From contig MU006094.1 in the NCBI GenBank assembly GCA_010093705.1, forward strand, positions 172,020 through 236,019: a stretch of DNA of 64,000 bases, given 5' to 3'. The notes beneath the pieces are model-generated. The model was not told the origin of the DNA, searched no databases, and saw nothing but the letters and a program-made list of their open reading frames with translations. The position numbers and the translations under genes are program-made. This DNA comes from Patellaria atrata CBS 101060 (lineage: Eukaryota). This document shows, piece after piece, positions 4,974 through 59,096 of this stretch (positions are counted from its first letter, which is position 1; each line of letters begins with the position of its first letter).

Positions 4974-7571
4974 TCATATCGGCAGCCCTTCTCCATCATC
5001 CTTCACTTCAGAAGTACCAGCCAGAGTGCCGTACACCCTCACCGGGACCGCAACTTCGAAACTCTCCACAAATAACCTCTCTACCGGGGCCCAAATCTCA
5101 CCTCGATCATCTCTACTCGCTTCTTCAAGTAGTTCTCCCCATTCTGTTTCATATCCAGCCTCACTCGTAAGTCTTGGAGTTACGAACTCGATTCTAACCT
5201 TCCACTCGAGGCTTATTCCGCTAGTGATAAATTCTGGAGTCGCATTTGGTGGGATTGTGGGCGAGAAACTTAATCGACGAGCGAAAAGAGCATTTTCGGA
5301 AGCCGATGCATGTATTCTCCGCGTAACACGATGGATGCTAGATGCGGAGCGCAGTGCTATAGCTGGATCGACACGTTCAGAAGTCTCTAGAGCAAGGGAT
5401 ACGGAATAACAAGGTATATCAGCATTGGTGAAATCTACCACCGCGGAAATTGTCTCGCCTAACCGGTATGCCGGACGGGCAAGCATGATGACGGCAACGC
5501 GACGGCCGCTCCGGGCAATTTCGAAGCGGTTCGTACTCTGGTTTGAGGATGTGCTTACGTTACTACGCAGGATAGCTAAGTCAATGGCTTCTTTCATGGA
5601 CTGAGGCTCTTCAAGCACGGAGAGACGACGGGGTCCACTTTCAGTAGGGGACAGGAGGCCCATATTGGGGTTTTGAGGTGGTCTCTCTAAGAGCTTGTCG
5701 GCATAATCTAGAAATTCTGAAAAGCCCTGTTCCGGTGTCGGTGCAGGTTTTGTAAAGCTTTTCTTTTGCATAATATTAGTTCTCGCGGGCTCATCAATAA
5801 TAGCAGTTTGAGCTTGGTCACGAAGGATAATGTATGGCGACATCAAATCGTGACCGAGTATTTCTCCTCTACCTTTATTAAATTAGCAAAGAGTGCACAA
5901 AGGAAGGACACTATATGTACCTGTAACACTACCCAAGATTCGAAAGGGGATGTTAACATGCTTAACATGTTGCTGATCCCGACCTGAACTTGGTCGTTGG
6001 GTCCCGATAGTGAGATGATAGGAGATCTTAAGGGCTCTACCCTTGTGAGTTGGTGGTAGCCCTCTCGGTAATGTAAAGCTATAGCTATAGCTGCGACTCT
6101 CTCCAGGAGCTAGCCTTAGGTCGACAAAAAGTATTGACTGAGGTGTCGATAGAAGAGGAACTGTCTTTGCACTCGCGATTCCCTTCATCTCTCGCATACT
6201 GCTCAACTCACCACCGCCTAGCAAGCCGCCCAGAGACTCGCCAATATTTCCCCATCCGAGAGCCCCAAACAACCCGCTATCTCTTTTTGACCTTTCCACG
6301 CCAACAACACCTCCACCTGCCTGGCTCCCTAAAACACCTTTGCGTTTAACTTCCTCAAACGGTGCTTGATTGACAAGGGATCCATCTAGGGTGAATGATC
6401 CCATAATTTGAGCATAGCCCATCATCAATGTTTCTGGCTCCCGTCTTATATTTGACGCATTTAAATGTGATTCTCGTCGTGAATGCCCGTCTCCACCAAG
6501 TAGTCTCACTGATGAAGCTGGAACATATTCCGAGGCTAATGTTTCACTCGAATGGTTACTCATAGAATAAAATTCTACGCTACTGCGAGGGGTTCCGTTC
6601 ATGCTTGACCCAGAAAGAATTCGAGCCACAGGGGACAGCGTTTCTGTGTGAGCAAGCCCAAGTCCAATTGCGGAACTTGGGACGGGCTGCTCTCCCTGTG
6701 TTTTGGATGAGAATTTGTTGGTGAGAGTTCCACCAGGGGATACTGCGGAATCCAAGACTTGGGGCTCGCCGAGGTTAACAGTATCTGAGGGCGGCTCAGG
6801 AGGAAATTTGAACGTAGATGGGATAGGTCCAGACAACCCTCTTGTTATTACCGGTATACTAGGAGTATTCAGTGCAGTCGATCTACCTTGCATACGCCGA
6901 CTAGGTTGAGGGGGCAGAGAGACCTCATTTTGGGAGTCTGGGAGCGAAAATGGTGCACTATTGAGCGGTAAAGATTTAGGAGGAAATCGGAAGGGGGGCG
7001 ATGCTAATGAAAATCAGATATAATATCAGAATCCAAAGCAAAAAAACTGACCTTGCTGTCCTATAAACGGGCTTGTTGCGACTTTACCAGGTACAACCTG
7101 TAAGCTTGCAGAACGGCCATGACCTCGCATTGGCCTTCGGGCAGTGGTTGTAGATATACTCCTTGCATGACCCTCATCACCGATTATATCAGTACCCATA
7201 GAAAGTATAGACAGCGACCTGCCATGTCTATGTGCACATGTTGGGGGTACATTCTGGGTAGGAGGGGCTGGTGGATGGCCATTAACGGCGCTTGGTGTAC
7301 TCAATGAGAGTGTAGGCCGATGGCCATGCTCTGGTACGGAGGGTACTTGGGAAATAAAGGAGGAATTCCTGGATATGGCGAGCTTTGGAGTATTTTGTGA
7401 TGCAGTGAATTTACGCTGACGCTCTCCGTTCGATTTGGATCCACGAACTGGCGACCTTGAAGACCCCGGTAGAGGCGCTACATTCTTGAATGTTATTGTG
7501 CATTGAATTTCTTCGCCTGCAAATACAGTAAACTCTTTCCATTGAACAAATACTCGAATATCCGTAGACAT
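4974..7571 (-). CDS. RGP1: Rgp1-family protein (Ric1-Rgp1 Ypt6/Rab6 GEF subunit), about 3 exons
   Basis: ATG 7571 MSTDIRVFVQW..VFAGEEIQCTITFKN; ETLMMGYAQIMGSF; PLLSTPQSILFVDLRL; LPRGLPPTHKG; YRLGETI; ATPEFITSG. Introns at ~7004-7051 and ~5870-5920. Confidence 0.88.
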
Positions 7572-12002: not shown

Positions 12003-15000
12003 ATGTCTGACGATAGCAATGGGTCCGGTGTGCAGGCCTTCCTGGCCACCCTCAAGCCGAGCGATGACAAGGCAATGAAGCTAGAAAATACAGAGAAACG
12101 GGATACACAGATTGCGAATGAGTATAAGGCAGAGAAGAAATGGGAAGAAAGCAGAATCTTCGAGTACAACCCACCAACGCCGGAACAACTCTCTTCAAAG
12201 GAGGTCCCTCCTGAGGGTGAGGTGGTGACAATGGCGTACCCGTATATGAATGGTAAGATTTGCCAAATTCTTGACGATACGCACGGCTGACTATATATTA
12301 GGTATTCTACATTTGGGTCACGCTTTCACGGCTAGCAAGGTCGAATTTGCCGCGGGATTCAAGAGAATGCAGGGAAAGAATATTCTATATGCCCAGGGTT
12401 ACCACTGCACTGGCATGCCCATCAAAGCATGTGCAGATAAACTCGTGCGCGAAATAGACCTATTTGGACAAAACTTCGAGCGGTGTACTTTAAAAGACCT
12501 TGTTGAGGAGGAGCTAGAAACAGCGCCCGCCCCTACGCAATCTGATACCAAAGAGGATGTTACGAAGTTTGGGTCGAATAAGAGCAAGGCAGCGGCAAAG
12601 AACATAAAGACGAAGTATCAATTCCAAATCATGTTATCGATAGGCGTACCATTAGAAGAAATTCATAAGTTTGCGGATCCTCAATACTGGCTAGAATACT
12701 TTCCTCCCAGGTGTAGAACTCACCTACAGAGATTCGGCGCAAGAATAGATTGGAGGAGGCAGTTTGTGACAACAGACGCAAATCCGTACTACGACGCATT
12801 TGTGAGATGGCAAATGAACCGCCTTAAGGAGCTAGGTAAAATCAAATTCGGGAAGCGTTACACCATATACAGTCCAAAGGACGGACAACCATGTATGGAT
12901 CACGACCGAAGCTCAGGAGAAGGCGTCGGTGTCCAGGAATATACTGCGCTTAAGCTCCTGGTAAAGGAATGGCCTGAAGCAATCCAAACTAAGATATCCA
13001 ATTCCCTTCCCGGTGATGCCAAAGTCTACTTTGTCCCGGCTACTTTACGCCCTGAGACAATGTATGGTCAGAATTGTTGTTTTGTAGGACCAAATCTCAC
13101 ATACGGTATATTCAAAGCAGCAGAAAACGAGTATTACTTCCTCAGCCCACGAAGTGCTAGGAATATGGCGTATCAGGGGCTCTTTCCGGAGTGGGGAGTT
13201 TTCCCTCAAGTTGCTGAACTGAAGGGTAAAGACGTCATTGGAACCCTCGTAAATGCACCCCTCTCAGTTCACAAGGACGGTGTTAGAATTCTACCTATGG
13301 AAACAGTGAAGGATAGTAAAGGTACTGGGGTTGTCACCTGTGTGCCTTCAGACAGCCCGGATGACTACGCGACCATTATGGATCTTACTAAGAAAGCTGA
13401 TTACTACGGAATCAAGAAAGAGTGGGCAGAGCTAGAAATCCTCCCCTTGATTGAGACACCATCATATGGAAATCTCACCGCCAAGGCACTTGTGGAGAAA
13501 TTCAAGATAAATGGACCTAAGGATACAAAGCTAGCCGAAGCGAAAGAACTTGCTTATAAAGAGGGATTCTACCAGGGAAAAATGATCTATGGCGAGTTCT
13601 CTGGACGACCAGTGTCAGAGGCAAAGAACCTTGTTAAGCAGAAACTTATTGATTCGGGAGATGCGTTCAACTACGGTGAGCCGGATGGACAAGTCATTAG
13701 TCGAAGTAGCGATGTATGCGTAGCAGGCCTCCTTGATCAGTGGTACCTCAATTACGGAAGTGACGATGCTGAGTGGCGGGATACAGTCCTCGATTGGGTG
13801 AATAATGATCTCGAGACATTTCAGCCTGAAGTAAAGCATCAGTTCCAGCAAACTATAGACTGGCTTAATCAATGGGCATGTGCTAGGACGTATGGCTTAG
13901 GTTCGCAATTACCTTGGGATCATACTTTCCTCGTCGAGAGTCTCAGCGATAGTGCTATATACCCCGCGTACTATACGATTGCGCATTATCTACATAAGGA
14001 GATGTTCGGGAAAGAACCGGGTATCCTTGGAATCAAACCCGAGCAAATGACAGATGATGTTTGGGATTTTGTCTTCGCACGAACTGATGAGAAACCGCAA
14101 ACCGATATTAGCGAAGATGCTCTACAAACACTCAGACAAAGCTTTGAGTACTATTATCCTACAACATTCCGGGCGTCTGGGAAAGATCTTATTCAGAACC
14201 ACCTTACATTCTACTTGTATGTTCATACTGCACTCTTTCCGCGGAAGTACTGGCCTAAGGCTATTCGCTGTAACGGCCATCTGCTCCTTAATGGCCTGAA
14301 AATGTCAAAGTCAACCGGCAATTTCCTTACACTCGAGCAAGCTATTGAGAAGTTCAGCGCCGATGCGACACGTGTAGCTCTAGCTGACGCTGGTGATGGC
14401 ATGGAAGACGCGAACTTTGAGGAATCTGTAGCTAATGCGGTCATCCTTAAGCTATATACACTACGCGAGTGGTGCGAGGAGATGATCCGTGACGCTCGGG
14501 TTGTCGAATCAGCTGATCAATACGCTAAGGTTATCGCCGAGGAGAAGCTCAAGAGTTATGACATAGTACAGCGGACAGGAGAGAGATTGATATGGGATGT
14601 CCTTTTCGAAAACGAAATAAACTCTTTGGTACGCGAGACGGAGAAGTCTTACACGGCGTCTTGGTATAAAGCTGCTCTGAAATCTGGCTTCTATGATTTC
14701 ACGGCTGCTCGAGACTTTTACCGAGAGGCTACAAAAGCTGCTGGGGTGGGAATGCACAAAGATGTTATTACCCGATATGTTGAGCTACAGGCCCTTATGA
14801 TCCAGGTTCCCGCACCACATTGGGCAGAGCATATCTGGTCTGAAGTCCTCAAGAAGGATACCTCATCTCAAGAGTCAAGATGGCCTTCTGTTCCGGAACC
14901 GGACGCAAAATTGACAGCGATAAGGGAATATGTCCGTACCACATCATCCAATATTACGTCCGCAGAGGGTTTGCAACAGAAGAAGCTGGCCAAAGGCAAA

Positions 15001-48689: not shown

Positions 48690-50822
48690 TTTGTGGGTGG
48701 GCCGCCGCCTACCCCGGATATTACTTGCTGCAGCTTGGTGCAACGTGATTAGACGTGCGAGAAGTGCTGACGACGCTGCTCGTCGCTCTCGCGATACAAA
48801 AGGCGTCGATGCTTCTCGACATTTGGTGTGAAGAGGGCTTCTATGAGACTTGGGCTATCGAAGCCCAGACGAGGGAGGTTGCGTTACGATGTTATCTCAC
48901 TGAGTAAGGTCTGTGAGATAGCAGCAAATGCTGTTCAGCTCTGTCTAATGCTGGCACATGAAGTTTGTACTACTCCTGCATGGAGTCTTGGAGCTGTGGG
49001 GCAGAGGGGTTGCAGTCTTCTTTTTCGCGTGTGAAGGTCGAGCTAGAACTACAGGATGATCAAAGCAACCGACTCGGCAAATGGTTCCCATGTTAAAGTG
49101 ATTTTCATGGTTTCGCGAACTCTGTTCCATCTTCCTACAAAGTATCAATATGTCCACAAAGATAGTACGATAGGCTGATCGATATGGTAAGTTTCTATTC
49201 AGGAGGATAGTATGCTCACCGCCAGCAAGGGTTCAGTGAGCCACGGGCATACGGTACTCTCAGGAGAGTAACGTGTCTTCTGGAAAGGTTCTTGTCCAGG
49301 CTTTTACAATAGGCAAAATAGCATCGAAGTATGCAAGAACATCTATTTGGATTCCAATAATAGGAAACATTTAGCTAATATTATCCGAAATTTAAGCCTA
49401 TTCCACACTTTAGTGCCCGCGGAATATATGGCCATTGTCCTGATCAGGACGTTGAAAATCTATATGATACATTGGTCTCCGTTCGAATTTCCCACCAGAA
49501 GCAGAAATAAGTCCATCAGAGTAGAAAGATGAATGAATCGAACTAGTAGAACGTTAAACATCTCACTGCGTCTTGGAGTATCTGTGAAGTATTTCATCGG
49601 AATATCAGCCTGATATATTATCTTTCTGTCTGGCTCTAGCTCATCATCTCACCTCCAGTCAAGCTAATGCATCATGTCATTTACCAGATTCAATATCATT
49701 CCGGCGGGTGTAGTCCAGTTCATTCGTTGCAAATCAAGGGGTCACAGTCCATGTTTGTTCTCGAGAAATCATGTAGGACCATGCTAGACTCTCTAGCCCC
49801 TTAATTCAACGAAATGTTCTGTTAGGATTCAGATAATGCAAGTGAATACCGTATCATCTGGACAGAAACAATAGGGCAAAGCCCTCTCCTACAGTACTAG
49901 GACTCTGATATATTTCTGTGTTGCATATGACATCCTGAGATTATCTTTCACTAAAGGGTTATATGTTAGACGAATATCATTTCTACAGCTTTCTCAAAAA
50001 CTTCGAATATTAGAAGTTGATGTTTACACTTACAACATCTGTCAGTATAAGAAGTCTTAGGTCCTCAAGGTCGTTACGGGAAGAATGGATGCCTTTCCAG
50101 ACTCTTAATTTTACAGGTTACGTTCAATCCAAAATAAGCATCGCTAATACTTCCAATCATTAAGTCTTTCGAATCATTATTTTAACTTCAGCTTATGATC
50201 ACTTAAGGGGGGCTAAGGATAACTGAAGAGACGAGTATAGGTGGCTGAGGCCTTTATACCTCCATCATAAGCAAATGTCGCGGCGAAGACAAGGGACTTC
50301 AATCAAGAACAAGACTGAGCAAGTGAGCATTTCACTCCAGCTCCCTAGTTCTTGGTATACTATCTGTGAAAATGTCATCAATCGGTCAATGAGCGGAGAA
50401 AAATGATCTTTATTCCATAAGTGAGACGCAGGTACATGTCTCTAAGATTTCTGTCGGAAAACAAATATTAACAGCGATGAACAGTAAAAAATCGAGGGAC
50501 GTTCCGTACTTCTATATCAGACGGTCCCCGTCCTAATCCCCTGGGACCAGAACATAAGTTGACACGTCACCCATGGCAACCAACCCACATAATCCTAAGA
50601 TAATCTAAGCCAGGAGGTAGGGCAAATAAAAAACATAAGAGTGCCGCTAAACAATGCGATTCAATGGAAATGGGGCACATTCATCTAAAAGGATTATAAA
50701 CATGCAAACCAAATCTCAAGTAGATATAATAGCAGCACTGTTCCAGACACAGTCAGGCCCACCATCAACTACCGTTACCTCTCAGTCACCACCGTCGTTC
50801 AGTCACTATCGTCGTCTAATTT

Positions 50823-51218
50823 CCATCGCCGTTCAGTTACCATCGCCGTTCAATTACCATCGCCGTTCAGTTACCATCGCCGTTCAGTTACCATCGCCGT
50901 TCAGTTACCATCGCCGTTCAGTTACCATCGCCGTTCAGTTACCATCGCCGTTCAATTACCACCACCGTTCAGTTACCACCACCGTTCAGTTACCACCACC
51001 GTTCAGTTNNNNNNNNNNNNNNNNNNNNNNNNNNNNNNNNNNNNNNNNNNNNNNNNNNNNNNNNNNNNNNNNNNNNNNNNNNNNNNNNNNNNNNNNNNNN
51101 NNNNNNNNTTACCACCACCGTTCAGTTACCACCACCGTTCAGTTACCACCACCGTTCAGTTACCACCACCGTTCAGTTACCATCGCCGTTCAGTTACCAT
51201 CGCCGTTCAGTTACCATC
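50823..51218. repeat. 17-bp minisatellite GTTCAGTTACCA(TCG/CCA)CC spanning an assembly gap
   Basis: About 11 units before and about 6 after the N run; degenerate copies extend back to ~50761. Confidence 0.95.
51009..51108. other. Assembly gap (100 N)
   Basis: Run of exactly 100 N, typical of a placeholder of unknown size. Confidence 0.99.
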
Positions 51219-53050
51219 ACTGTGCTTTACAAGTAGGATCGATCCTGCTAACCTCCGACTATGCCCGCGTGACCTGGTGCATCAGTTGGTTGTACAACTC
51301 AATTAGAAGGGCCTGGCTGGACGGATGATGTTAGCTATAGCACAGAAACGCCACCCACACCAATTAACAGCTGAAAAGGCCACGAAAGCCACTCAAACAT
51401 CTCACGTCCGTACATCTGATAAGGAATCCCTACCGTCCAGCACCCTAAAGTCTTCTAGGGAGCATAATAGCAACATTTTCAGGTATTGGGGCATTTCACA
51501 ACATTCGTTCTTGGGGTCAATCCTCACCACGCTTCAACAGTATGTATTGACCGATTACCTTAGATTCAAGTGTCCAGAAGAGTCCATCTCAGATTGCGCA
51601 CTTTACAAAGATCGGGTCATTCGATTCGAAAACCTTTTGGGAATATTTCCGTAGATCCAATTAATAACGTAAGTTGAGGGGTATTATCAAAGCTGTTAAC
51701 AGCATCCGACTTCCGATCTTTTGATGGTATGTGATAGCTTTATACTTAGAAATGCCTGTTAGATTCCCTAGCTCAAACTGGGGTGATATGTAGTATTTTA
51801 CTCGTCTACGGTTTATACCTAGCATCTCTTCAAAATGCTCATAGAATATCGTGGAACTCTATGTATAACGGTTTGGTTTCAAAAAGTGCAAAAGCAGTTG
51901 GTTTCAAATGTAGTGCACTAAGACTAAATTGAATGTTGAACTCCTACGTCAGTACTATTAAAGGTCATTTGGAGCAATATAAAACGGCTGGTGAGGGCAT
52001 GTCGGCGAGTGGTAAAGACGTACTCTTTATATAGTTAGCATTCCTAGGGCTGACCTAAATCAGGTTTAGTTCCGTCTCATAAATCCCTCTAACTAAATTC
52101 GCATTTCACCCCAACCGCACATCTTGCATTCTTGCGGTGTAGAACTTGACATTATTCGTTAGGTTGCACCTGGCCGTTGTCTATGATCTTTTGTCGGGTT
52201 TCATTCACGATGGGATTCTGTACAATAATAGGTCGGAATAGATAAACTCGTAGGTCGGTGAGATCTAACTATAAGTACACTGCTGGCTAAGACCAATGCC
52301 GTAACTACCTTAGCATGCAGAGACTTCCGGGAAAGATCTAGTCTCTCACAGAACAACGCATAGATTCAAATCGTGCCCGAAAAACAGAGGAGTGTACGCC
52401 GGACCGGGGGAATCCCTTTATGGTATGTCTGACCCCTCACGCAATCCTTTACGCATATAATCGGTTCGCGGCCAAGGCGATATCCACCTCACTGGAGAAG
52501 AAATAAAAGGAAATCGACATCTTTATGTACAAATACAGTGGAGCGCCTGATCTCACCATCTGAATCCCAAAGAACTTATGGTCTGCATGAACATACCACA
52601 ACCAATAGACCATGTGGTCCTTATGAACACCATGACAATGCGTCGGGATTAGCAATGCATCTACTCCCCGAGTTCGCCGACCTCATCTTTCTTTGCTTCC
52701 TCCATTACAGCGCAGTTGGGCTGTATTGCAACTGTGTAGGGTGATTCGTCCAGGTTGCCACTCCAATAGATCTTAACTGCAAATGCCTCAGTGCACAAAA
52801 GCAACCCTTACGTCCGTTACTCGACCCTATGGTTACGTACAGTACAGTGAGCAGTATGCGAGTAGATTTTATAGTTCTAAGTGCTCTCAGTTATGGTGTA
52901 ATGCATCCTTTAAATCACTATATCACTTCCCCTAGTTCTATCCCCTAGCTTCACATATCTTAGCCACTTTTAGTTTCATATACCCCTTGATCATTCTTAT
53001 ATGTGCAGTTCTTTCGACAAAAGAGATAACTTTTATTGTCATCTTTAACT

Positions 53051-54108
53051 ATGTTCACTCCTCTCGAGACAACCCTGGGTGCAATACTTCTACATCAAGC
53101 ATCGTCTCTTCTCTTATTCAATAATGGAAAAATTCTGGGCATGTCAGGAATCCTAAGGGACCTTCTATCCGGTGGTTCTCGTACTCATATCCTTTTTCTG
53201 GTTGGTATGGCAACTAGTCTTGTGTTCTTGAAAATCATGTTACCAGTCGCGATACCTCCAAATTACACTACAACAACTACAACTCAGGGTTCTCTAGTAT
53301 GGACGTTACTGTTAGGAATGATGATAGGTTGGGGAACGAAGGTATATTTTGACCCAAATCTGTGTTCCGAATCCACCACATCCACTTATATCTGACCCCA
53401 TTTGTTCAGAAATCGAATGGGTGTACATCTGGTCATATGCTTTGCGGACTACCTCGACGAAGTGGGAGATCATTTGTTGCTGTCGGTATCTTTTTCCCCT
53501 TTGCTATTGCTACATTTCACTTAATGAACCCCCTTTTACAAAATGACGTGTGCGGTTCGGACATAGCGTGCTACCACCCGACCTATCCTTCATTTGGGGA
53601 TGCGGTGAAGTATATTACGGTTACTATTACGTCTATCCTAGCCAGTCGTATCGCTCCAGATATATGCGCAAAAGGAAAAGAGGGCAAGATAATCGCCCCA
53701 TATATAACCCACGCTTTTTCCGGCTTCCTCTTTGGACTTGGCCTGCTGATATCTGGCATGTCGAATCCAGTGAAGGTGCAGTCATTCTTTTTCATAGTCA
53801 GTAGATCGTGGCAGCATTTCGACCCCTCTCTCGGATTGATCATCATTTTTGGCATCATTCCTTCCTTTCTACTCAACGAATACCGAGGATTCGAAAAAGC
53901 TCCACGGTATCTCCCAACATTTTCGTTTTCTTCTCAAACCATTAAGGACGTCGATTTCTCCTTCGCAGTCGGTGCCGCCGCTTTTGGAACCGCTTGGGGC
54001 ATGAGTGGAATTTGCCCGGGACCGGCAACTCTGAAAGCAATGGTGCAGCCACAATGGGGTTTAGGTTGGCTTACTGGATTCATCGCTGGCACATGGCTTT
54101 CAGGCTGA
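53051..54108 (+). CDS. YeeE/YedE (TsuA-like) sulfur-compound transporter family membrane protein
   Basis: MFTPLETTLGA..NNGKILGMSG; GWGTK|..NGCTSGHMLCG; FGLGLLISGMSNPVKV; FDPSL; FGTAWGMSGICPGPA. Intron at ~53342-53409. Confidence 0.88.
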
Positions 54109-54777
54109 GGTAACTCGCTCTGGGCTGTTGACATATGATGTTCGGCTAATAGGTATTTAGGATTATAAATCCAGATTCTAAATTGATCATCGCTCTCTAC
54201 TACTTGAAATGAGCCGATCCGGATTCCGCGATTCGGTGAATGCTATCTTTTCCCCGTCTTGGGTGGCGTTCCTGGTCTGCAGAGTAACTACCCGCCGAAT
54301 GCGAATTCGTACAGTCGGAGACACCATTAAGTGCGTCTGTACAGTAGCCGGAATTCCCACGACCGAGGAAGAAATAAGTATGAGATGAGCTACGCCATAG
54401 ACTTTACATTATTTACTACCTTAACCCGTGATCATATATGTCACGTGTGAATCATCGGTAACCTATCTGGCAATAAATCTCTAACTTGCACATGGCATTC
54501 ATTGTACCTCTTCACCAGTAACCTTGTCGGAGGCCAAGACTCAGAACTTACATTTTTTGACCACACTCCATCGCCAGTTTTATACATTCCAACAAACTTG
54601 AATTTCTACCTCGCTTTCTTTCTACAAAGTATTATACGATTCTATACACCTTTTCGAATCGAATCCGAGTATCCACTCCGATCTTCTATACAACACTCAG
54701 GGCAAACGACTCACAATCCAGCATCATAAGAGAAGATCAAGTCATCCAAAGATAAGAAGAGGTCGGAAAAGCGTTTT

Positions 54778-55254
54778 ATGACCTACACCTATCTGCGAAG
54801 TTCTAAATACTTTCAAGCTGCTACCGATAGGGAGTTATCAAAAGAGCTTCCCGCAATTGAAAGCAACTTCTTCGATTTGTATAAGATATGTAGATACGTG
54901 GTCGTGTTATTCGTTAGCATCTTGCTCAAGTTGAGAGAATATTTTAATCCTACGATCAAGTCAGAATGCAATTCTAGAGAGGAAGAAGCGGTCTGGTTCG
55001 TTGATTGCATGCTCAGATTTCTCGCCACATCTGAGTATGTAGATGCTGCTAGGAAATTGATTAGGCGCGTGGACTACTCCAAGTTGGACTATCTGGATAC
55101 CATAGAGTTAGTAGCAATAAACGAACCTTCTGCTGAGGATCTCAACCTATGCGATGGCAGTTTGAGGTTGCTTTATATGGCGTCAGCAGTTTGCTCTGCA
55201 ACAGAATGTATTTACGTTACGGTAACGCAAACGGAAAAGGAAAAGAAACAGTAG
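54778..55254 (+). CDS. Orphan ORF (158 aa), possibly an exon of a lineage-specific gene
   Basis: Open frame with protein-like composition; no recognisable motif. Confidence 0.25.
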   Translation: MTYTYLRSSKYFQAATDRELSKELPAIESNFFDLYKICRYVVVLFVSILLKLREYFNPTIKSECNSREEEAVWFVDCMLRFLATSEYVDAARKLIRRVDYSKLDYLDTIELVAINEPSAEDLNLCDGSLRLLYMASAVCSATECIYVTVTQTEKEKKQ

Positions 55255-55960
55255 GGTAAGAAGTCGTTTTAATGGACAATCTAATGTTTCTCTATCAGTG
55301 TCACCTTCGACGCAATATATCAGGTAGCCTCTGTTGTAGAATAATCTCTTTATACTTACCTCGATTCAAATATATTGTTCTTCACTGTCCTAATCGCATA
55401 CTAAGTGACTGAAACTCTAACTTCCTTTGCATATGGACTTCATCTACAAAATAAATTCCTTTGTATAACTACTCGGACTGTAAAGCGACTCTTTCTTATA
55501 CCTATTGTGAGAACACCCCTCGCGTACTATATGCTGATCTATTCATCTTCCTTCAACTTTACAGCGCTGAAATAACTGAGTCTACGGGATTCCCAATTAT
55601 ATATAGATGAGTATCAAAATTTGCTAAGATATGGTGGTCTAAATATCATATAAGAGAATTGAGGACATATAAGGGATCTGACCACACCGATAGTGAAAGA
55701 CTTCTTATAGTTCACGCTCAAAACTTGCCAGTAGTAATCTAATAATGGTAAAGATGCCTAAAACTACCAAACTTAACAGGGAGAGTTATATCATTTCCAT
55801 AATTTCATCCCGCCCATTTGAAGGTTCATCATCAGCGGATAATCTGTGTGACAGTTCTCAGTTCGTTCTATAGCCTATTCCCTCGTCGCTACGTTCTAAG
55901 TTTGCACTCGTTTCGCCTCGCCTAAGTGAAAATCAAACAAGACCCTTCTATACCATGACG

Positions 55961-56176
55961 GAAGAATCGGCATTCATATAAATCCACGCGGTGGTCAAGT
56001 GATGTGGGCCTGAGGCTCACATCATGTCACCCAAGCGTCGTGGTCTCCCTGGTGCCATAGGTTCGATTCCCGGCATTGCCATTGTGTCAAAATGGGGGGA
56101 GGGGTTTCAGGAAAGTGCCCTGAGGGAATACGGAGGGGGGCGGGCCGTATTAGAGGATTCTTTCTTTTTTTTTTTT
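55961..56176 (+). ncRNA. Candidate Pol III structured ncRNA (tRNA-type internal promoter, not a canonical tRNA)
   Basis: A-box-like TGGTCAAGTGA (55992), perfect B-box GGTTCGATTCC (56060), oligo-T from ~56165, and several hairpins. The acceptor stem and T stem do not pair. Confidence 0.55.
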
Positions 56177-56921
56177 AACTTTTTTTTTCCCTAATAATGT
56201 TATGGAGCCGATGGTTGGTGTAATACTGTATAAAACTTCGCGTACCTCATTCATAAGTAGTCAATTGGTAATTTGCTTTTATGCTTCACGGTTGGTAGAA
56301 TTCTTCGATACGAGTCCGGTTGTGATAATCTTTTTAAGACAGATATGTTGAGAGGAGGCGTGGCTTTTAAGAACCTCGAAAAGAGCAATAGGAAACGGAA
56401 ATAATCGTAACGTGAATGCTTTAGTTGAATTACGAATACTTAACTTCACAATCTTAGCATAGCACTTACTGGGAAACTATAAAGGATTCACGGAGCTTTT
56501 CAGTGGAATCGTTGGGGGGTAAATACTCGCTCTACGATATACCAATTGCAAGGGGAGGGGGATGAAGAAAATACTAAGATACAGCCCTTGCATAACACAA
56601 CAACTTGAATCGGGGAGAGTAGTAGAAAAGGATATATTTAGACTCGTTGGGTAGAACCAATTACACTGTCCTAAATAGAGAAACACAGGCAATTCTTGAG
56701 TTGTTCCGCATGCTACAAAATAAGAAACAAAAAAAAAAAAGTTACGATAAAGGAGGTGCATATAAGAGTCACGCTTATTCACTTGTAGCTTAAGGTGGGA
56801 CCATCCCTGCAACTAAATTCGACATAACCTCAGTCCCAAGCTCAAGACAACAACCAACCATTCAAACAACAACCCTCATCTCAACCTCAATCCCCCTTAA
56901 ATAATCTCATCTACGTTCAAG

Positions 56922-57617
56922 ATGATACTACGACAACCAACCACCCTCCCTCTCCGCCTCGCCTCCACAACCCGCACCTTCACCACCACCCCCTCCGCCC
57001 AAAGGTACAAGCCCATCTTCCCACCCTTCTCCAAACCCCCCCCGCGAGTCCGCGAACCCCCCCTCATCCCAAATGACCTCGCAATCCCCCCCTATCCCCA
57101 TGGCCCAAACAAATGGTTCAAACAATCCAACCACGGCCTCTACGGCGGCCTGACCCGCCGCACCGGCAACAACGTCTCCTCAAAAACCAAAACCAAAACC
57201 CGGCGCAAGTGGCTGCCGAACGTGAACTACAAGCGAATCTTCTCCATCGCGCTGAACCGGCGCGTGCGGGTGCGGGTCAGCACGCGCGTGATGCGGACGA
57301 TTGATAAAGTGGGCGGGCTGGACGAGTATTTGCTGGGCGAGAAGAGCGCGCGGGTGAGGGAGTTGGGACCTCTGGGGTGGGCGTTGAGGTGGAGGGTGTT
57401 GCAGACGCCGTATGTGAGGAAGAGGTTTAGGTTGCAGAGGGAGGCGCTTGGGTTGCCGGATCCGGAGGTGGAGATGGGGGTGAGGGCGGAGGAGGTAGAG
57501 GCCCAGGTTAGGAGTTTTGATGAGAAGTTGGATCAGGAGGATCGGGAGGAGGGGTTTGTGCCGGGGACCGATGTTGAGTTGAAGGCTCGAGGCGAACAAG
57601 GCGCTGTGCCGGTTTGA
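56922..57617 (+). CDS. MRPL24: Mitochondrial ribosomal protein bL28m
   Basis: WFKQSNHGLYGG..GNNVS..KTRRKWLPN..MRTIDKVGGLDEYL..ELGPLGWALRWRV; N-terminus resembles a presequence. Confidence 0.92.
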   Translation: MILRQPTTLPLRLASTTRTFTTTPSAQRYKPIFPPFSKPPPRVREPPLIPNDLAIPPYPHGPNKWFKQSNHGLYGGLTRRTGNNVSSKTKTKTRRKWLPNVNYKRIFSIALNRRVRVRVSTRVMRTIDKVGGLDEYLLGEKSARVRELGPLGWALRWRVLQTPYVRKRFRLQREALGLPDPEVEMGVRAEEVEAQVRSFDEKLDQEDREEGFVPGTDVELKARGEQGAVPV

Positions 57618-57892
57618 TCTGGGTCGTGTCGTTGGTGGTAAAACTGCTACGGGGTTTGTATTATAGGAGGTATGAGGGTGAAATATATAGCTTGACCTGA
57701 TCAAAAGGATGCTCGTGGTCATGAAAGGGACACATTCTGTATAATACAATCATTCCGTCTACGTACATGCGATGTCTCGCGTGTCCGTGTACTATGTATC
57801 TGTCATCACTATGAACATCCCCCAAACTAAACCTCCAAGATTCATTCCATCAAATAATTACAAGCATATGCAGTTACAATCGCTCAAGGCGC

Positions 57893-59096
57893 TCACCGTC
57901 CAGTTCTCTGCCTCTCAATCTCGGCCCTAAATGCATTTCTACCTTCCTCGGTTGGCGTACCAACCAAGCTCCCTAGATCCTCATCACGAGCATAACCACC
58001 TTGAGGTTGTCCGAACTCTCCGCGTGGAGGCGAGGGAAGATCATCCCTGTACTGGTGCTCCCTTGAAACCTCTCGTTCCTGCAATCTGATCGCACCCTTC
58101 TTTCCCATACCCAATCTCTGTCTTCGACTCTTACCCGACGCATAGCCCCTATTACGAGACATGATATTGCCCAATCCGATGGTACGAGTCTTACGCATAC
58201 CGAAGAGAAGACCAAACATGACCAAGAACAAACCTCCAAGACCGATAGGCAACCCAACTTTCAAGCCCATGTCGTTGGGATCGATATGGTTCTCTGGTGG
58301 AGGAGGGTAGTGGCTTGGGGGTTCGTGTCTGAGCTCGACGGTTGGTCCTGTAAACCAGGTGGCCACCTCGTCGCGACCGTCCTCGAACTGAACGGCTAGG
58401 AATGTGAGGTTGAACCGGGTGTAGCCGTTCAACCATTTACCTTCCATTTTTACTGTTGCGAAGCCGTCGCTGTGCGGGACTTCTCTTGATTGCCATGCTT
58501 GGGTTTGAGAGGAGTTGTCAAAGTTGAGTGCAATGGCGACGGTGGAGTTGTCGTTGAAGAAGGCGGGATTCCAAGTTACTGTTGAATGTGAGTAAGACGC
58601 TTCGCAATGGATAATGTATGCTAACCATAATATATTTTACCAACGTAAACCTCAGTGTTGTTTGTGGGTTGACAGAATGGCTTCGCGTTCGGATCTGTAC
58701 ATCGGATTGATTCGTCGGTGCTCACAAGTGGAGCATTGGTAGGTCTGGGTGTAGGACTAGCAGTAAGCTCAGGTTCTGCAGTTTCTGACCTATCTCCAGT
58801 CACAGTCGCACTTGCGGATTCTGAATCGGACTCGGTAGGTGTAGGGATCTCTACTTCCACGGTTGTGGTTGTTCCATTAATAACCGTCTGAACAAGAGCA
58901 ACTGTAGGACCCTCAGTGATTGCAGTGTCGGTTGTGCTAGGAGATGCTATGATACATTATCAATACTCTGACACGTCAATTGGGTCAACAAAGTCTTACA
59001 GTCTTCTTGTCTGTACTCCAATGGTCCTGCAATTGCACTCAGAACGAATGGAGACAAAGCAACCAGAGCGGTAAAGCTCCCAGTAGTAAATAACAT
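57893..59096 (-). CDS. Type I membrane protein, DUF4448 (Psg1/Ykl077w-like), 3 exons
   Basis: Signal peptide from ATG 59096; Ser/Thr-rich stalk; PFCQP..VGKIYY|VTWNP; TM VGLPIGLGGLFLVMFGLLF; cytosolic GYASGKSRRQR. Confidence 0.72.

Follow-up and report, generated by a model that had tools for sequence, protein, structure and literature searches.

In Neurospora crassa, the 5S rRNA genes are dispersed, and an upstream TATA box is conserved among them. The AfuSINE2 elements of Aspergillus fumigatus have been described as low-copy families of 140–493 bp with degenerate A and B boxes, none of which, in the description given, folds as a cloverleaf (PMC5063351). As described, these elements were defined with target-site duplications (TSDs) of 4–14 bp, and transcription was demonstrated for five of the eight families (PMC5063351; Kanhayuwa & Coutts 2016). 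In Yarrowia lipolytica, 13 dispersed tRNA-Trp-RUF70 genes that RNA polymerase III (Pol III) transcribes have been reported. According to the same account, the leader of RUF70 is a functional tRNA released by cleavage, and the 70-nt RNA, which shows compensatory changes, was detected by Northern blot; the leaders of RPR1, snR52 and ZOD1 in Saccharomyces cerevisiae are presented there as having A and B boxes with no tRNA-like fold (PMC2566860). For tRNA genes, upstream TATA-like elements have been placed at about –34 to –29 (PMC3082873).

The unit described here lies in a stretch of 64,000 nucleotides (64 kb), which is referred to as the window. With roughly even confidence, and judging from the sequence, we read positions 55944–56189 on the plus strand as one of a small family of dispersed, promoter-complete Pol III units (TATA, A box, B box and oligo-T) that would be derived from tRNA genes and would produce an RNA of ∼190 nt. 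The island is not a one-off structured RNA but belongs to a small family of tRNA-derived repeats, elements of a kind for which there are earlier descriptions from fungi.

Promoter architecture and identity of the unit

The unit is flanked, by Pfam, by a DUF6691 gene upstream (53353–54105, plus strand) and a Ribosomal_L28-family gene downstream (56901–57614, plus strand), the latter fitting the MRPL24 neighbour named in an earlier note on this DNA; a Psg1 gene on the minus strand follows next. No ORF of at least 80 aa overlapped the unit. The G+C content of 55978–56160 was 57%, compared with 39% in each 500-nt flank, in agreement with its earlier description as a GC-rich island in AT-rich intergenic DNA. 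The features of the unit are given below, of which the TATA-like box, the two internal boxes and the T runs were read directly from the letters.

55944–55952, plus strand: TATA-like CCTTCTATA, proposed TFIIIB/TBP site, a function suggested by the sequence
55972–55985, plus strand: start zone, with the onset of family homology, from the boundaries of the copies and the branching of the contig graph, and the predicted Pol III start
55984–56043, plus strand: long hairpin with imperfect pairing, located between the A box and the B box; its 26-nt arms are 73% complementary
55992–56002, plus strand: A-box-like TGGTCAAGTGA
56060–56070, plus strand: B box GGTTCGATTCC, exact, where TFIIIC is proposed to bind
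56071–56160, plus strand: G-rich 3' domain, GC skew +0.39
56127–56151, plus strand: terminal hairpin AATACGG/CCGTATT, whose arms are exact 7-mers and whose fold is not above that of shuffled sequence
56165–56189, plus strand: T12 run (56165–56176), AAC and T9 run (56181–56189), proposed Pol III terminator

The A-box-like site, the exact B box and the T runs from 56165 that had been pointed out earlier were all found in place; judged against the consensus forms, both boxes of an internal Pol III promoter are present in the tRNA-related head of the unit. The two boxes were spaced by 68 nt, start to start, and T12 began 95 nt after the B box; within 55978–56164 no T run reached five letters, T12 starting at 56165. 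These results established the anatomy of the unit. GGTTCGATTCC occurred exactly once within the 64-kb window, and when up to one mismatch was allowed, 2 matches were observed versus 1.53 expected, which indicated that the B-box motif by itself was not beyond chance. The other near-B-box in the window was located at 14029 on the minus strand, inside a class I tRNA-synthetase ORF. A script scan of the window that called for a strict A box together with a B box and a T run returned no units; even the present one was missed, its A box ending in GA. A scan for bacterial-type promoters and terminators, which is not applicable to a fungus, returned nothing. From the positions of the A box and the TATA-like box, we infer that Pol III would start near 55975–55985. 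An onset of homology near the predicted start is also expected of a retroposed SINE.

It was found that ARAGORN predicted no tRNA over the window, whether introns were allowed or not. At the 80% threshold, a 'tRNA-Asp' with a 6-nt intron was called at 55998–56081, which was regarded as noise because 122 calls were obtained in the window at that threshold. No Rfam family matched in the window at the gathering score. In the E-value mode over 55800–56350, up to E = 10, no tRNA, U6, 5S, SRP or RNase P model was matched, and the three matches that were obtained, with E values of 0.67–9.2, were far under the gathering scores. The identity of the unit as a tRNA gene was ruled out by the lack of ARAGORN calls and of an Rfam tRNA match. 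Thus, checked against Rfam and a tRNA detector as had been proposed, the unit was identified by neither as a known RNA. The earlier reading of a tRNA-type Pol III promoter that is not a tRNA, with a failing cloverleaf and no signature of U6, 5S, SRP or RNase P, agrees with these results, the A and B boxes and T12 being present with no tRNA or Rfam match.

Folding of the unit

The long hairpin proposed in the earlier note at 55984–56043 was borne out by folding. The segment folded with –31.5 kcal/mol and a z-score of –4.30, and none of 200 shuffled sequences was as good. The perfect core of the hairpin comprised 12 bp at 55999–56025 with a 3-nt loop, and the core segment 55996–56028 gave a z-score of –4.43. 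The further helices of the same proposal fared differently. The fold of 56044–56104, which covers the helices enclosing the B box, CCATT/AATGG and CTCCC/GGGAG, was at chance level (z = –0.26), and so was that of 56104–56160, covering TCAGG/CCTGA and AATACGG/CCGTATT (z = –0.12). The z-score was –0.07 for 56078–56168 and –2.17 for the opposite strand of 55978–56168. For the whole of 55961–56170, the z-score was –1.08, and 24 of 200 shuffles folded as well. Only at the long hairpin is folding above the level of shuffled sequence.

The pair AAGAATC/GATTCTT, which had been thought to close the whole molecule, was confirmed as an exact 7-nt inverted repeat. As a closing helix it was not confirmed: its 5' arm (55962–55968) lies upstream of 55970 and 55973, where two other copies of the unit (see below) stop matching, and hence outside the shared unit, and the whole fold was near the level of shuffled sequence. 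Two further contigs begin at 55978 and are thus uninformative on the sequence upstream. A MITE was also considered and rejected: of the 7-nt terminal inverted repeat (55962/56156), the 5' arm falls beyond the shared unit, and no duplication flanks it.

The first reading of the locus had been a unique, undescribed structured RNA gene transcribed by Pol III. The complete Pol III-type architecture and the lack of an Rfam match would suit such a gene, but the unit is present in multiple copies, the fold of the whole molecule is at chance and the presumed closing helix is outside the shared sequence. We therefore regard a single structured RNA gene as exceedingly improbable.

Copies of the unit and their variation

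Other copies of the unit were found in contigs, probably of DNA, from two runs (X1 and X2) of one sample in one study, which contained 0.98–0.99 of the sampled words of 55000–58000. The contigs were aligned to 54000–59000 at 80% likeness, which gave 17 pieces for X1 and 20 for X2, and the results below hold among the pieces listed. Positions 56156–56194 were masked in these alignments, and the 3' tails of the other copies would fall there. The contigs of the locus itself matched the stretch exactly and broke at 55972–55999, the behaviour expected of a contig graph where a word is repeated. Among the pieces listed, the unit only was matched, with 83–89% likeness, by at least four other contigs, whose loose ends were unrelated. 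Those of X1 were as follows.

Record 3, 7519-nt contig: matches 55944–56151, with 27 changed letters and 8 gaps in 208
Record 6, 170-nt contig: matches 55978–56151, with 21 changed letters and 6 gaps in 174
Record 5, 5428-nt contig: matches 55973–56057, with 13 differences in 85
Record 7, 7430-nt contig: matches 55978–56033, with 6 differences in 56

All four records were at single-copy depth (311–351). The result for X2 was like that for X1, with one further contig over 56049–56081. The summed depth was 2517 at 55975, 2253 at 56002, 1603 at 56007–56030, 972 at 56059–56119 and 2522 at 56135. With a single-copy depth of 297–334, the summed depth corresponded to about 7.5–8.5 copy equivalents, which indicates that ∼8 copies have the two ends of the unit and that fewer align across its middle. 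These results established the multi-copy status of the unit, against the premise of a single gene that had been implicit in the earlier note, and suggested that it is one of about eight dispersed copies. Positions 56171–56337 were covered by the contig of the locus alone, so the shared sequence ends at or within the T runs; for the same reason, a poly(A)-tailed minus-strand element to the right of the T run was rejected. No second copy was found inside the 64-kb window by blastn with a word size of 7, matches of T or A runs aside, and pattern scans of metagenomes for relatives returned 0 loci.

The TATA-like box lies ∼40 nt before the A box and ∼25–35 nt before the strong shared sequence begins, a distance within the range of the TATA-like elements reported for tRNA genes (PMC3082873). 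The pattern CCTTMTATA matched twice in the window when both strands were searched (128 kb). The second match, CCTTATATA at 1924–1932 on the minus strand, was discarded as a candidate, there being no Pol III-like unit downstream of it. In the loose ends of two other copies, CCTTATATA was found to end 18 and 21 nt before the boundaries at 55970 and 55973, which places it at the same position in both, while CCTTCTATA at the present locus is one base closer. The alignment of a third copy, record 3, extended exactly to 55944. The loose ends at 55970 and 55973 were otherwise unlike each other and the window, and no alignment by eye was possible for the spacers that separate motif and boundary in the two loose ends and in the window. 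The basis of this comparison is 30-letter consensus strings of the loose ends of two contigs, one alignment end and the present copy, that is, three or four of the ∼8 copies. Retroposition could not carry the motif, because a Pol III transcript would start downstream of it. The recurrence at a fixed offset of a box outside the transcript thus favours a family of genes of the leader-promoter type over retroposed SINEs, and in our judgement there is about an even chance, on sequence grounds, that the copies are duplicated or selected small-RNA genes of this type and not retroposed SINE copies. If the TATA-like box were family-wide, the copies would be maintained as working Pol III genes and not be retroposon debris.

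The chief rival to a gene family is a classical tRNA-derived SINE, in which Pol III transcripts of a master copy would be reverse-transcribed by a LINE enzyme and the present copy would be an old, decaying insertion. The ∼8 dispersed copies in unique contigs, at 83–89% likeness, are what such an element would leave, two of them stop matching at 55970 and 55973 near the predicted start, and the middle of the unit decays freely. Its size, low copy number, degenerate boxes and lack of a cloverleaf are also as described for the AfuSINE2 families (PMC5063351). Against this, no TSD abutted this copy. No direct repeats of at least 5 nt exact, or of at least 8 nt with one mismatch, joined 55950–55985 to 56160–56205. 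The sole 8-mer common to the flanks, CATTCATA, occurs at 55971 and 56248; the second occurrence is misplaced, with 58 nt between it and the T runs, and is in DNA covered by the contig of the locus alone, and a match of this kind arose in 642 of 5000 shuffles (13%), i.e. at chance level. There was no A-rich tail at this copy, the 3' end on the promoter strand being the oligo-T terminator T12-AAC-T9 and not an A-rich or LINE-like tail. The upstream motif at a fixed offset in other copies, in a small sample, also speaks against copying by retroposition. A scan of 22 of the window's 52 long ORFs detected no reverse-transcriptase domain, a weak argument, as the partner could be anywhere in the genome. 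We consider a classical SINE possible, although not probable. Of the three options in the earlier note, an undescribed Pol III RNA, a pri-milRNA or a SINE head, the best fit is the last, with families of Pol III units counted alongside it; neither a TSD nor an A-rich tail accompanies it here. The pattern named there for an ordinary SINE, many dispersed copies with TSDs, was likewise found in part, as dispersed copies and no TSD at this one.

Differences were assigned to individual copies by means of the contig depths. Those within ∼30 letters of the ends of a piece are unlisted, and the listed total equals the stated total for record 6 only; the unlisted differences near the ends number at most three in record 5 and at most two in record 7. 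The divergence among the copies was about 15% overall, and 18 of the 37 listed differences were transitions, which gave no signature of RIP as their origin. All 21 substitutions of record 6 fall outside 55978–56001 and 56120–56151, and record 3 has no listed difference within 55976–56001; the A-box block is identical in these two copies, which are the two that can be judged. Position 56002 was G in four contigs of X1 and five of X2 and is A in the present copy, indicating that the family A box ends in GG and that this copy is the odd one. In the B box, T was changed to C at 56062 in one aligned copy, and the others showed no listed difference. A variable patch at 56082–56097 was heavily changed. 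The 3' block 56120–56151 contained zero listed substitutions, near-end differences being unlisted except in the fully accounted record 6. At 56135, in the loop of the 3' hairpin, all five other contigs lacked two bases.

A further alternative is a silent relic. In that case an old tRNA gene or element would have been duplicated and its copies would be dead, the boxes surviving by chance and no transcription taking place. The A box of the present copy without the terminal G of the family, the B-box change in another copy and the variable central part would be in line with decay of this kind. The exact B box and the intact T12 are not, nor are the A-box block that is identical in records 3 and 6 and the 3' block without a listed substitution, compared with ∼15% divergence overall. 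A TATA-like box kept at a fixed offset is a further point against dead duplicates, and we judge this explanation unlikely.

The helices were followed through the copies as well. Among the four copies phased by depth, the long hairpin was kept in two (records 5 and 7) and broken by uncompensated indels and mismatches in the other two (records 3 and 6). The stem changes in records 5 and 7 were all transitions by which pairing on the plus strand is kept as G-U or A-U. By our own arithmetic, the chance that four transitions in Watson–Crick pairs all keep pairing is ∼0.06, and records 5 and 7 probably share these changes by descent. CCATT/AATGG was lost in both copies aligned there. Positions 56071–56119 could be aligned in only two or three copies, in which TCAGG/CCTGA was kept without covariation. 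The pair 56053–56075 is T-A here and was T-G, apparently C-G, and C-C in three other copies; it is the sole pair with a possible double change, and one copy is mismatched there. From variation of this extent among the copies, no conserved RNA structure can be claimed.

The hairpin raises the question of a Pol III pri-milRNA, in which the stem between the boxes would be cut by Dicer into small RNAs, as in Neurospora. It alone folds above chance, and two of the four phased copies change its stem by pairing-keeping transitions only. In Neurospora, milR-1 to milR-4 have been described as Pol III products with T clusters, milR-4 arising from a tRNA-containing transcript; as described there, the T run is immediately downstream, compared with ∼140 nt past the hairpin in the present unit (PMC3547838). 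A perfect core of just 12 bp with a 3-nt loop, indels in the stem of the other two copies, and the small number of pairing-keeping changes, probably shared by descent, also weigh against a milRNA precursor, which is very unlikely.

Predicted transcription and relation to known systems

Under the favoured reading of a family of promoter-complete Pol III units, TFIIIC would bind the B box at 56060–56070 and the A box at 55992–56002, and TFIIIB would be placed on the upstream TATA-like box at 55944–55952. Pol III would start near 55975–55985, pass through the long hairpin and then the G-rich 3' domain, and stop in T12 at 56165. The predicted product would be an RNA of ∼185–195 nt with an oligo-U end, in which the hairpin between the boxes would be the only convincing fold. 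The RNA would not be processed as a tRNA, because its head cannot form a cloverleaf. Transcription of the unit, its start site and whatever function the RNA may have are, like these steps, inferred from the sequence. The body of the RNA shows little sign of selection, which counts against a gene family: the hairpin is broken in two of four copies, CCATT/AATGG is lost, one B box is mutated and the A box of the present copy is deviant.

A more far-reaching proposal, which we put forward tentatively and regard as doubtful, is that one or several selected families of promoter-complete Pol III genes descended from tRNA genes make hairpin RNAs of ∼190 nt, that 55944–56189 is one working gene among them, and that they form a lineage-specific class and possibly a source of milRNAs. 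If true, such a class would be comparable to RUF70 or to the small RNAs related to SINEs in animals, and filamentous fungi would hold lineage-specific Pol III small RNAs that are missed by current annotation.

Like the 5S rRNA genes of Neurospora, the units would form a dispersed Pol III family whose flanks are unrelated apart from one element, a TATA-like box at a constant distance; the RNA is a different one, and the internal promoter there is of type 1. Compared by description with AfuSINE2 as reported (PMC5063351), the unit is likewise short (∼190–245 bp), low-copy and dispersed, with a tRNA-related head carrying A and B boxes, a body unrelated to tRNA and no cloverleaf. It differs from that description in its oligo-T 3' end, in the recurring upstream TATA-like box and in that no TSD was found here. 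With the Pol III milRNA loci described in Neurospora crassa (PMC3547838), it has in common the filamentous ascomycete host, TATA-like elements, a hairpin and a T cluster, and milR-4 is linked to tRNA genes in that account; unlike in those loci, the hairpin here is between the boxes, with ∼140 nt from it to the T run further downstream. In contrast to that of RUF70 as reported, the head is no tRNA, and the downstream part is without convincing covariation. The plan of the unit is nevertheless like that described for RUF70, RPR1 and snR52, in which a tRNA-like 5' module with A and B boxes is followed by a non-tRNA RNA and then by the sole terminator; it is a multi-copy dispersed family, as RUF70 is, and its head is without a tRNA fold, as are the leaders of S. 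cerevisiae (PMC2566860).

The tRNA-like head and G-rich 3' domain of the unit

When ARAGORN was run at an 80% threshold, it proposed a fold resembling tRNA-Asp(GTC), containing an intron of 6 nt, at 55998-56081, within the tRNA-derived Pol III-type unit (55944-56189, plus strand). Its acceptor stem was GTGATG/CATTGC, and its register differed from that of the A-box-like site at 55992-56002 proposed in the earlier note. The proposal is noise-level at this threshold; as a clue, the fold hints at a possible former tRNA-like register of the unit's head. The 3' domain (56094-56144) exhibited a strong G skew (GC skew of +0.39) and contained runs of G6, G4, G3, G6 and G3, a sequence in which an RNA G-quadruplex is conceivable.

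Contig alignments on either side of the unit

Contigs of the same organism, from two runs of one sample (X1 and X2, probably DNA), were aligned to 54000-59000.

55837-55900, repeat fragment of 64 nt, matched on the opposite strand by another contig (X1 and X2)
56686-56758, contig-graph break, with overlaps at 56686-56715 and 56729-56758

The repeat fragment lies ~75 nt 5' of the unit. Among the matches listed, it was matched by one further long contig (32.9 kb in X1, 17.4 kb in X2) with 9 changed letters, and both sides carried loose ends, that is, contig sequence unmatched to the window. It is a second small repeat fragment, unrelated to the Pol III unit. The break coincided with a low-complexity A-rich run 5' of the Ribosomal_L28 gene, and the depth there was slightly raised (361 versus 297).

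Two split coding regions in the window

50651-51328, open reading frame of tandem proline/serine-rich units, with an N run at 51009-51108
4977-7013, minus strand, Rgp1-family gene in two adjoining open frames (profile match)

The units of the first frame are ~17 aa each and QLPSPFSYHRRSVTIAV-like, and the frame is split by the 100-N assembly gap. No Pfam match was found in the pre-gap half (50651-51008 scanned). The frame with its gap probably represents a coding tandem repeat that has been collapsed. In the Rgp1-family gene, 5886-7013 corresponded to profile positions 1-167 and 4977-5882 to positions 168-414; the split is probably a frame change over a short intron rather than a break.
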